From IMG/VR virus record IMGVR_UViG_3300029120_000055: DNA of 17,260 bases. The stretch is one strand, 5' to 3'. A program made the translations under genes and the position numbers. Source of the stretch: a virus. Shown here piece after piece: positions 8,293 to 16,668 of this stretch (within the stretch, counting starts at the first letter, position 1; every line of letters begins with the position of its first letter). The notes under the pieces were generated by a model. That model ran no database searches. It was not told where the DNA came from and saw only the letters and a program-made list of their open reading frames with translations.

Positions 8293-10497
8293 CTATGAAC
8301 GTGACCTGCATTTACAAGCCACTATGTTTCCAGTATTGATACGATACTCAGCGACTTCCTTGGAAATTTGCCCCTCGCCATCGCCAACATTTTGTGCAAT
8401 TTCGAGTTCGGCCTGAGCAAACGCCATTTGGCCTTCAAGAGATGCTTTCTTAGCCTGAAGGTCTGCAATCTCCGCATCAATGGCCGCATTAACCTGTTCT
8501 TGTTTGCCGCTGATAAACGCATCAACGACGCCCTGATTCAACGTCACCTGACCATCAGCGGATACGGTTGCATTCGCAAGAATCTCAGGATACGCCTCAG
8601 CAAACTCACGCGCCTTGTCGGCAGAAATTGTGAAGCTGTCCGCGACTGTATTCTGAATCGACGCGATTTGCTCAAGTACGCCAGAGCATGTGTCAAAAGT
8701 GCTTAGGATGCCAGACCACGGGCTTGGCATATTATTCAACAACCGGTTATTCTCAGCAATCGCCGCATTGTTCTTTGCGATTTCGGCTGTGTAGTCCGAA
8801 ATCGCAAGAGTGCTGCGTTTATCATTGGCATTTTGCAGGTTATCAATATGCTTTTGAAGTTCATTATTGGATGCCTCAAGCGCAGCAGTTTCTTCTCTAA
8901 TGGCATCTGCCTCAGCCTTATTCGCAGCATCAATAGACGTAGACGATGCCTCGCTCATCACATCCTTGACGGTGGACATGGCAGCGCTGAAGGAGTCAGT
9001 CGCGTTCGTTGCATTTTGAGCCGCATCGGCATATTGCGGGAAGGTCTGATTGGCCACTTCAGTCAGATATTGCTTATACTGATCTGACGCACCCGCCATG
9101 TTGTTGATAGACGCGATAAAGGAATCGAACGTCTCTTGAGAATTGACCGTCATTTCCTTGAGCATATCAGATATTTTAATGACAGCATCATTCTGCATCT
9201 GATTTGCAACCGCCGAATTATACTCATCAACGATACTTTGATAGAGATCAATTTTACTCTGGATGTCATTCAAGAGCTGAGAGTTCTCGTTCTCATCCGA
9301 GCTACGCCATTCATCCGAACTTAAAAGCGTATCTTGAATTTCTTTATAGATATCGACCATACCGGCCGCATCTTTGTTCATTGCCGCCCAGCTCACGTCA
9401 ATCTTGTTGTTGACATCCAGTAGAGCGCTACCAGAATAACTAGCTTCTTTAAGTGCCTTGTTCAGAGCCTTGCTATTTGCAAGCTCGATATCCGCTCCCA
9501 TAGAATACGGGTTGTCAATCGTTTTAGTGCCAGTGCCCTCAGTAAGAGCACCTTGCTTGTACTTGTTTGTGGCGCTTTCTACCTTCGTCTGAAGCGCATT
9601 CGCATTCTGTTTTGCCTGTTCAGCAGAGATATTTTTGAGCTTGGAAACCTCGTCATCTAACTTGCCATTCACAAGGTCAAGGTTGTTTGCCTGAGAGCCA
9701 ACCAACTCTGTGATCTGGTCTTGGATGCTTCGGGCTTGCTCACGAGAAGACGAATCAAAATCACCGGCAGAAGCAAGTTTGCTGTACTGCGCAATGAGGT
9801 CGTTCAGTTGTTCGCGCTGATCGTTCGCGGCACTAGCAACGTCATTGACCTTTTGCTCGTTTTCCTCAGCAGCCTGTTTTGCTTTTTCTTGAGCATTGCG
9901 AATCGCATTGATACCAACAGAGGCAATCGTTGTGATGGCGGAAATGATTGCCACAGGACTGCTGATGAAGTTCTTTGCAGCAGCCTTAACAGCAAGTGTC
10001 ATATTGCCAGCCCATTCTTTAAGAGAGGAGGAATGACTTCTGGTAGCCAATTCTGCCGCAATTTGTTTCTGTTGTTGTTTTGACAGCGACTTGCCAAAAT
10101 CAGACGCGGCAATTCTCGCTTCTATTTCGGCCTGAGCATACTTTTTGTCAGCCTCAATACCAAGTTGTTGAGCGACAGTAGCCTTGTCAAGATTGTACTT
10201 TTTGGCGACGAAAGCTATTTTTTGCTCGTTTGTGCTACGAATTGACTCAAGATTAGCCAAGACATTATCGCGTTCTTTGTCTGTGAGCGCGGCCGTGCTA
10301 AGTAATAAGCGCTGTTGCTCTGCGGACAAGCCAGCCACAGCAGCAGTATATTCATTTACCTTAGCAGCATCAACCTCGTTAACAACAGACCCGGCAACAG
10401 CCGTTCCGCCAGAAACATTCGGCGTCTTATCCGCGTATTCGTTATTAAGTGCCTCTATTTGCGACTTCGCATTTTTTAATACTTTAAGTGATGCCAA
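8293..10497 (-). CDS. Tape-measure-like coiled-coil tail protein (middle segment); the last 8-9 codons and the stop are supplied by the intron
   Basis: The 734-aa frame is rich in Ala, Gln, Glu and Asn and looks like a coiled coil. It has a hydrophobic segment, FISSPVAIISAITTIASVGINAI. The frame opens immediately after in-frame TAA-TGA (10503-10498) with a TTG. There is no ATG before codon 166 and no Shine-Dalgarno sequence upstream. The tail ...NIVA-CKCRSRS* runs into the P1 region of the intron. Confidence 0.75.
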   Translation of the reverse strand: MASLKVLKNAKSQIEALNNEYADKTPNVSGGTAVAGSVVNEVDAAKVNEYTAAVAGLSAEQQRLLLSTAALTDKERDNVLANLESIRSTNEQKIAFVAKKYNLDKATVAQQLGIEADKKYAQAEIEARIAASDFGKSLSKQQQKQIAAELATRSHSSSLKEWAGNMTLAVKAAAKNFISSPVAIISAITTIASVGINAIRNAQEKAKQAAEENEQKVNDVASAANDQREQLNDLIAQYSKLASAGDFDSSSREQARSIQDQITELVGSQANNLDLVNGKLDDEVSKLKNISAEQAKQNANALQTKVESATNKYKQGALTEGTGTKTIDNPYSMGADIELANSKALNKALKEASYSGSALLDVNNKIDVSWAAMNKDAAGMVDIYKEIQDTLLSSDEWRSSDENENSQLLNDIQSKIDLYQSIVDEYNSAVANQMQNDAVIKISDMLKEMTVNSQETFDSFIASINNMAGASDQYKQYLTEVANQTFPQYADAAQNATNATDSFSAAMSTVKDVMSEASSTSIDAANKAEADAIREETAALEASNNELQKHIDNLQNANDKRSTLAISDYTAEIAKNNAAIAENNRLLNNMPSPWSGILSTFDTCSGVLEQIASIQNTVADSFTISADKAREFAEAYPEILANATVSADGQVTLNQGVVDAFISGKQEQVNAAIDAEIADLQAKKASLEGQMAFAQAELEIAQNVGDGEGQISKEVAEYRINTGNIVACKCRSRS

Positions 10498-16668: not shown

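Follow-up and report, generated by a model that had tools for sequence, protein, structure and literature searches.

Group I introns carrying an open reading frame (ORF) are described from several phage genes, e.g. T4 td, nrdB and sunY, SPbeta bnrdE/F and Twort orf142. They lie in phase within a conserved essential gene, have a P1 with a U.G pair, a P3/P7 pseudoknot, P4-P6, P8, P9.0, P10 and a terminal G, and keep their foreign coding sequence, one homing endonuclease gene, in a peripheral 3' part. IStrons (CdISt1, BcISt1), in which a group I ribozyme is combined with IS200/IS605 or IS607, begin with the ribozyme, continue with cargo on the kilobase scale and have their 3' splice site at the far end; they are presumed to splice as a single unit. 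A different type of example is provided by phage morons and accessory islands, with their lower GC, promoter-like sites, terminators, small helical (possibly membrane) proteins and rapid turnover. Also pertinent are rps3 and other non-endonuclease genes in fungal mitochondrial rnl group I introns, where the sheltered gene has no connection with the mobility of the intron. The locus dealt with here, in IMG/VR virus record IMGVR_UViG_3300029120_000055 (17,260 nt, 'the window'), comes from a gut phage and, apart from the homing endonuclease gene, shares the listed traits of all three phage-borne or mobile classes; IStrons occur in the same phages. Very probably, one gene for the tail tape measure protein (TMP) is interrupted by a group I intron of 3171 nt (13665..10495, minus strand), the cargo of which is a multi-gene accessory island.

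The tape measure gene

The first of two TMP-like frames, ORF1 (16668..13591, minus strand, 1025 aa), ends at TGA 13593-13591 and in profile searches has PF10145 and matches to several TMP PHROGs. The second, ORF2 (10497..8293, minus strand, 734 aa), opens as TAA-TGA-TTG with the TTG at 10497; it has no internal Met before residue 166, and there is no GGAGG-like Shine-Dalgarno (SD) sequence in the 20 nt upstream. In a relative, L016, there is no ATG, GTG or TTG at all among the codons where the second frame opens. A single TMP profile, phrog_4211, continues from one frame to the other, its positions 349-952 corresponding to ORF1 residues 404-999 and 954-1457 to ORF2 residues 126-672.

When ORF1 and ORF2, joined at 13666/10494, were searched against 5.8 billion proteins, the closest 78 matches (81-99% identical) all had a first ORF of 999-1026 aa. 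More distant TMPs of 2550-2885 aa are uninterrupted and match, at 35-43% identity, over as much as 95% of the joined sequence. In pairwise BLASTP against uninterrupted TMPs of 2721, 2741 and 2885 aa there is one high-scoring segment pair (HSP), spanning 1-1721, with no insertion or deletion at residue 1001/1002; at the junction, for example, FIRSVG/ASLKVLKNAKSQI-EALN is aligned with ALIYKFCAEMNMLQSTVLPVTEAIR. From the profile adjacency together with the single HSPs it follows that ORF1 and ORF2 are halves of one ancestral gene, with neither loss nor gain at the junction. In the only relative so compared, L004, the spliced TMP is 92.5% identical to that of the window, again in a single HSP.

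The original prediction, made from the letters of the window, had remarked that ORF2 opens directly after TAA-TGA with no SD and no ATG for 165 codons, as is indeed the case, and had suggested that related genomes be compared for contiguity of the two frames, which the uninterrupted TMPs display. Its central proposal, one TMP gene split by an intron-like element of about 3.2 kb, gains support from this colinearity and from the covariation of both core and distal pairings described below, all as read from sequence.

The ribozyme core

Around the stop of ORF1, 491 nt of RNA have a predicted folding energy of -190 kcal/mol (z = -6.4; none of 100 shuffles was as stable). Group I Q and R elements are present there (Q = AAUCCGCAGC, R = GUUCAGAGAG). 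Because Rfam is silent on the core, group I identity had to be established by covariation, in an alignment (A2) of 10 sequences laid out as P1, P1a, P2, P2a, P2.1, P3, P4, P6/6a, P7, P8 and a pseudoknot. Standard pairs occupy 97.6% of 670 cells, a proportion that falls to 34-43% when the 3' partners are slid by 1-3 columns. Changes on both sides, i.e. compensatory, occur in 37 of 68 pairs (shuffle mean 16.9), and the covariation score of 0.452, in comparison with 0.04-0.08 for the slid versions, was reached by no shuffle. P1 has its U.G in all 10 sequences and compensatory changes in three of its seven pairs.

The topology is canonical, P3-(P4,P5,P6)-P7-AAU-P3'-P8-P7', with P3, P7 and P8 covarying and P4 and P6 invariant. 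At the base of P7 an invariant G-C pair is followed by a bulged A and a second G-C pair (13467-13465 with 13422-13421 in the window), a sequence consistent with a guanosine-binding site. Further elements are P2, P2a, P2.1, P5 within P4-P6, P9, P9.1 and two extra covarying hairpins between P3 and P4, the loop of the second of which pairs with a segment 3' of P9 to form the pseudoknot. The 5' strand of P7 is followed directly by AAU and P3', with no P7.1 or P7.2. IStron ribozymes are of the IA2 type, with P7.1/P7.2 (PMC4227781), and the core is therefore not an IA2 IStron ribozyme; the missing helices may also explain why RF00028 is silent.

That the first TMP frame runs into a group I-like RNA had been anticipated, and the TGA, the stable fold and the covarying core agree; the boundary suggested for it, about 13680, was some 15 nt off, the 5' splice site being placed between U13666 and A13665.

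Within the structured extension that follows the core there is, as a separate matter, a perfect 13-bp hairpin at 13251-13220 (GAUGAGCCACCUG/CAGGUGGCUCAUC), with an alternative upstream partner GUGAGCCGCCUGUUG at about 13318-13304 and no U-run after it on either strand. It is the source of the sole local Rfam match, a chance match to sar RNA.

The splice sites

The 5' splice site, U13666/A13665, is in frame and has the invariant U.G pair, and exon 1 ends in ...GGGU (a Gly codon) in each lineage whose 5' end is intact, including all 10 aligned members. At the distal end, G10495 immediately precedes GCA UCA. The UGAUU just upstream pairs with AAUCA of J7/9 (P9.0), and the first 6 nt of exon 2, GCAUCA, pair with the guide UGAUGU (P10). 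The predicted exon junction is thus ...UCUGUGGGU joined to GCAUCACUUAAAG, which can also be written as UCUGUGGGU followed by GCAUCACUU or, for the distal site, TTCGTTCTGTGGGT followed by GCATCACTTAAAGTA. A G before the first sense codons had been pointed out earlier; P9.0 and P10 now specify that site. (GGCAUCA occurs twice here, 20 nt apart, at 10520-10514 and 10500-10494; the upstream copy offers a 7-bp P10-like match and leads into a frame of 12 codons only.)

Across lineages the introns are of 1.3-3.9 kb, with a P9.0 of 5-6 bp and a P10 of 6-7 bp, and compensatory changes are found in five to six lineages. The window's intron of 3171 nt (P9.0 AAUCA/UGAUU, P10 UGAUGU/GCAUCA) can be set beside those of L004 (3819 nt; AAAUCA/UGAUUU; a 7-bp P10 with exon-2 strand GCAUCGU), L024 (1325 nt; AAUCC/GGAUU; UAAUUGC/GCAAUUA), L087 (1803 nt; AAAUCG/CGAUUU; ACA plus AUCAA, with a 2-nt bulge) and L016 (1510 nt; AGACA/UGUCU; UGAAUAU/AUAUUCG). 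In each, the distal site continues exon 1 in phase 0 and falls at the opening of the long frame. Both strands of P1, P9.0 and P10 vary in concert with the diverging exons, a sign that splicing to the distal site has been kept by selection.

How discriminating the pairings are depends on their combination. P10 alone is weak, because the G/U-rich guide yields many 6-bp matches (10 sites of at least 6 bp in the island, wobbles allowed). Combined with P9.0, reading phase and covariation it becomes decisive. Among the G sites downstream in the window, 3413 in all, no other has pairings as strong as those of G10495. The distal site is likewise unique among 434-3504 G sites in L004, L001, L016, L024 and L087, and is one of two in L003.

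Table 1. Coordinates of the predicted intron, its host gene, its cargo and the neighbouring IStron in the window.
Feature	Coordinates	Strand	Remarks
TMP exon 1	13666..16668	-	1001 codons, ends ...FIRSVG with GGU; PF10145, phrog_4211
Group I intron (very probable)	10495..13665	-	3171 nt
P1	13672-13666 with 13636-13630	-	GUGGGU/GCCCAC, U.G at 5' splice site
Group I ribozyme core	13380..13665	-	covariation in 10-sequence alignment
P10 guide UGAUGU	13642-13637	-	within core
P7	13465-13460 (5' strand), 13427-13422 (3' strand)	-	J7/9 CAAAUCA = 13421-13415
Structured extension after core	13200..13379	-	83-97% identical in lineage; not conserved in other lineages
Cargo gene 1	13029..13196	-	about 55 aa, GTG start; protein conserved in most lineage members
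Cargo gene 2	12788..13021	-	77 aa (84-aa ORF from GTG 13042); alleles 69-95% identical; called 77 aa in relatives
Promoter-like site TTGACC-18-TGnTATAAT	12732..12761	-	11/12 matches plus extended -10; upstream of 346-aa gene; consensus match only
Cargo gene 3	11582..12622	-	346 aa, long helical N-terminus, alpha/beta C-terminal part; orphan; alleles 43-86% identical
Cargo gene 4	11341..11607	-	about 88 aa, basic, ATG 11607 in 119-aa ORF; 84-114-aa homologues at same position in relatives
Intrinsic terminator of antisense gene	11309..11336	+	T-run on plus strand only
Cargo gene 5, antisense to TMP	10610..11302	+	230 aa, zinc ribbons at both ends
P9.0 3' strand and terminal intron G	10495..10500	-	UGAUU 10500-10496, omega-G G10495; pairs with J7/9 AAUCA
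TMP exon 2	8317..10494	-	726 codons in window; phrog_4211 954-1457; L004 homology stops at 8317
IStron interrupting exon 2	6549..8316	-	borders from homology to L004 and L005; two copies collapsed

Proposed mechanism

A late transcript would run from exon 1 through the entire island, and the 5' 290 nt of the intron would fold into the ribozyme. Guanosine would attack after U13666, at the U.G pair atop P1; the distant 3' end would dock by P9.0, with UGAUU held on AAUCA of J7/9, and G10495 would enter the G site of P7. With exon-2 GCAUCA and the guide UGAUGU forming P10, ligation would give ...FIRSVG/ASLKVLK... in phase 0. Catalysis in vivo, like the timing of cargo expression and the roles of the cargo, is here inferred.

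Relatives

The contigs that encode close homologues belong to SPbeta-like phages, in which Yom/Yon Pfam families are present. In all seven relatives examined the first ORF is followed by an island, and on contigs of sufficient length there is then a second frame of 1669-1683 codons. Identity to relatives is 94-96% over 13800-13035 and 72-84% in the cargo; against L001 the core-containing stretch reaches 96%, and the TMP1 protein only 81%, which speaks for selection on the RNA.

A scan for the Q...R motif in IMG/VR, a one-genome-per-species collection and metagenomes yielded about 30 contigs of the window lineage and six further lineages (L016; L045/L079/L087; L024/L025/L070; L076; L078; L083). 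The flanking gene is a TMP, by its open frames, in L016, L045/L087 and L024/L025/L070. The genome collection gave a single match, in a Clostridiales metagenome-assembled genome (MAG; L076), where no 3' splice site could be recognised. In L089 and L091 there are 5'-truncated copies of the L076-type core, which start inside the second extra hairpin and have unrelated sequence upstream. L024, L025 and L070 have a second TMP insertion, about 1 kb upstream of the intron, after ...ISKINEVG and with a 315-aa ORF; probably this, too, is an ORF-bearing intron.

The motif also occurs in an Rfam-confirmed group I intron of L012 (IMGVR_UViG_3300051212_001920), a contig that in about 8 kb (4112-11909) has 11 Rfam group I matches (52-93 bits), several near back-to-back and on both strands. 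Several other Q...R loci, in giant-virus and phage contigs and not otherwise shown to be introns, have no Rfam match at the gathering threshold. Among GenBank phages there is no near match to the locus; one unannotated faecal fragment matches the core, and Clostridium phage Amboise has a weak TMP match.

The cargo

Between P9.1 and P9.0 lie about 2.9 kb with four sense genes and one convergent antisense gene. GC content drops from 0.48-0.51 at 13.75-13.0 kb to 0.34-0.43 at 12.75-10.5 kb. The original prediction, which had read the locus as a core-like RNA followed by AT-richer cargo of the same polarity, with an accessory-gene island in place of tnpB, is upheld in both respects, a Pfam search finding no tnpB in the cargo. 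The two features that it had itself raised as unusual for a group I intron, a promoter (as judged by consensus) and a gene on the opposite strand, are present.

The proteins themselves resist classification. None has a family match in Pfam (save sub-threshold zinc ribbons), PHROGs, PADLOC or NCBIfam, and in the same four collections no homing endonuclease of the LAGLIDADG, GIY-YIG, HNH, His-Cys or PD-(D/E)XK type was found, a novel type being possible. The 346-aa protein, in whose N-terminus hydrophobic segments were judged by eye, belongs to a family of five clusters among the 5.8 billion proteins, and its AlphaFold2 (AF2) model is poor (predicted local distance difference test, pLDDT, 50) and unfit for a fold search. 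Matches of the antisense protein to PF12773 and PF17032 are both below cut-off; it represents a 230-aa family whose C-terminal ribbon is shared with many proteins of 130-150 aa, and its AF2 model (pLDDT 79) has no fold match in the PDB.

As an island the cargo has its own promoter-like site and terminator, deviant composition, and presence/absence variation and rapid divergence in close relatives. From 21 contigs of the window lineage come 16 distinct introns, of 3137-3857 nt, with the same cargo set plus or minus a 171-aa gene and with both splice sites present. Divergence is graded, the cargo proteins being 43-86% identical as against the above value for the L004 TMP and 95-100% for the core, the last over 21 distinct lineage sequences. 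Other lineages have different cargo at the same position, each with an antisense gene beside the 3' splice site.

Given the promoter-like site and terminator, the cargo can probably be expressed while the late operon is silent. No terminator-like site was found on the minus strand inside the intron, and the sole strong terminator is unidirectional (plus), so nothing on the minus strand should stop TMP read-through. As its RNA would be removed, the cargo should cost the tail gene nothing. A more speculative extension, which at present seems rather unlikely, is that the intron family is a portable safe harbour for a fast-evolving, lysogeny-expressed cassette (exclusion, defence or host-modulating), moved by homing into one TMP codon, with one of the cargo proteins, e.g. 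the zinc-ribbon protein encoded antisense next to the 3' splice site, as a new type of homing nuclease.

Points against the intron, and other readings

Several considerations weigh against distal splicing by a group I intron. The splicing event itself is predicted from comparative evidence; the 3' splice site would be transcribed about 3 kb after the core, with a convergent gene between; P10 in L087 requires its 2-nt bulge; and an independent protein might conceivably begin at TTG 10497. The core has no match to RF00028 or elsewhere in Rfam at E <= 1 in the window search or at E <= 10 for 12900-13800, and we know of no counterpart of the two P3-P4 hairpins among described group I subgroups. 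A candidate 10-bp helix closing off the cargo (GUCGACCAAA/UUUGGUCGGC) was rejected: 19% of shuffles match it and its duplexfold energies are within the shuffle range. Lastly, a proximal site, 13194/13193 (GUG/GUAUUG), has a 6-bp P10 (four wobbles) in phase with a 54-codon ORF and, in the window lineage (L004-type relatives), a 4-bp P9.0-like pairing, UGGU/AUCA; the predicted junction there is ...GTGGGT followed by GTATTGAACGAGG.

Such a site is the basis of the most durable rival, by which the ribozyme uses only 13194/13193, or is inactive, and the TMP is two polypeptides (exon 1 with a 54-aa tail, and a second protein from TTG 10497). Besides those pairings it can draw on the earlier transcription of the proximal site, on the annotation of two genes by gene callers and on the presence, 330-480 nt into the intron, of P10-like G sites with in-phase open frames of 52-97 codons in all four of the window, L016, L024 and L087. 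Yet the proximal sites of L016 and L024 have no P9.0, and the small ORF (13196-13029) has its own GTG and is not conserved in L035 and L077, where it is replaced. As to a second polypeptide, ORF2 has no SD, the L016 opening has no ATG, GTG or TTG, and a two-piece TMP would not work as a single length ruler. The compensatory changes in distal P9.0 and P10 are sensible only if the distal site is used, and this rival is accordingly improbable. Two alternatives named in the original prediction, the short ORF at 13196-13029 as true 3' exon and a separate second polypeptide, fare poorly on the same grounds: the former has a weak, mostly wobble P10 with no P9.0 at its counterparts in L016 and L024, and the latter would be left with no start codon at the L016 opening.

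With distal splicing as the preferred reading, the proximal site is taken to be cryptic, its occasional use being possible. Other than cryptic, it may be an alternative 3' splice site or a remnant of how the cargo was acquired, and regulated use of proximal and distal sites to give two TMP isoforms is a further, rather unlikely possibility.

Decidedly less probable than the two-polypeptide rival is a degenerate IStron in which other genes have replaced tnpB. The polarity matches, the core being 5' and the cargo before the 3' splice site, and these phages have active IStrons (window, L003, L005 and L006). The kinship with the neighbouring IStron that had originally been implied is, however, not borne out by the cores. 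That of the window's IStron scores 79.7 bits with RF00028, whereas the core at issue here is missed by Rfam and lacks the P7.1/P7.2 of IA2 ribozymes, and there is no meaningful alignment of the two. Nor is there a tnpA/tnpB remnant (OrfB_IS605, Cas12f TNB), RAGATH-18 or omega-RNA in 10495-13665, and the insertion is fixed at one TMP codon whereas IStron sites are dispersed.

Hardly credible, finally, is that a DNA-level insertion (moron or transposon) broke the TMP of a decaying prophage and left the RNA structure as a leftover, a reading with which the lower GC, promoter-like site and terminator of the island, the 5'-truncated core copies and the missing 3' splice site of the Clostridiales MAG would fit, but against which stand the 16 distinct introns with both splice sites, a second frame intact for 1669-1677 codons where examined, a core more conserved than the exons, guides that co-evolve with both exon ends, and the finding of no transposase, recombinase or terminal repeats for the island.

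The neighbouring IStron and the assembly

An intron in one TMP gene, as preferred here, has also to be reconciled with what follows exon 2 in the window. Its two ends (1-99 and 17162-17260) are exact repeats of 99 nt, and the contig, labelled 'circular', is circularly permuted in comparison with relatives. The IStron comprises, on the minus strand, an Rfam group I match (8326-7895, RF00028), tnpB (7821-6682, 379 aa) and RAGATH-18 (6638-6578, 57 bits). It is absent from that exon 2 position in L004-L007, and tnpB copies are elsewhere in L003, L005 and L006; because its position differs among relatives, the IStron is mobile within the phage lineage. Downstream of it, the window (6548-1) has the genes found upstream of the TMP in L004 and L005, and TMP exon 2 is short of about 950 codons. 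Two copies of the IStron, located after GCU 8317 of TMP exon 2 and in a 129-aa gene, have been collapsed into one in the window, whether by the assembler or by recombination.

With this repeat collapse, the exon after the IStron belongs to the 129-aa gene and not to the TMP. The IStron 3' exon at 6585, which the original prediction had held up as a comparison for the TMP 3' exon, is therefore flank of another gene; similarly, 6576..6298 was ruled out as a TMP exon, its sequence being part of the 129-aa gene and the IStron borders being at 8316 and 6549. The collapse leaves the junctions at 13666 and 10495 unaffected, and both recur in the 21 contigs of the window lineage.

Significance and comparison with known systems

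If spliced as predicted, the locus indicates that an accessory island of several genes, on both strands, can be housed by a self-splicing intron in an essential structural gene, which widens the space to be searched for phage accessory, possibly defence, genes. The family is common in human-gut metagenomes, where gene callers give two 'minor tail proteins'; with two genes annotated and Rfam silent, TMP lengths, and tail lengths deduced from them, would be wrong for these phages. The atypical core is of interest to ribozyme studies, and from a practical perspective the arrangement is a natural design for inserting a payload in phage genomes with the host gene undisrupted. The predicted junction is directly checkable in metatranscriptomes. 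No published description of such an arrangement was found in the literature searched, which does not prove that none exists.

In comparison with the ORF-bearing phage introns, whose single gene is for a homing endonuclease, the window intron has five genes (about 2.9 kb), one of them antisense and with a terminator, an internal promoter-like site and no known endonuclease domain; its core has the two extra P3-P4 hairpins, the pairing of a loop with 3' sequence and the silence of RF00028. From IStrons it differs in having no tnpA, tnpB or omega-RNA, in being non-IA2 and in occupying one conserved site, and its cargo varies by allelic divergence and by gene gain and loss, not by transposition. 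Morons are found between genes, whereas this island is inside an essential ORF, where it would be tolerated only because it is within an intron; in contrast to accessory islands of the defence type, no cargo gene in the window matches a known defence family (PADLOC). The fungal rnl introns shelter a single sense host gene in an organelle rRNA intron, and the counterpart in the window is a multi-gene, bidirectional and variable cassette in a phage protein-coding gene.

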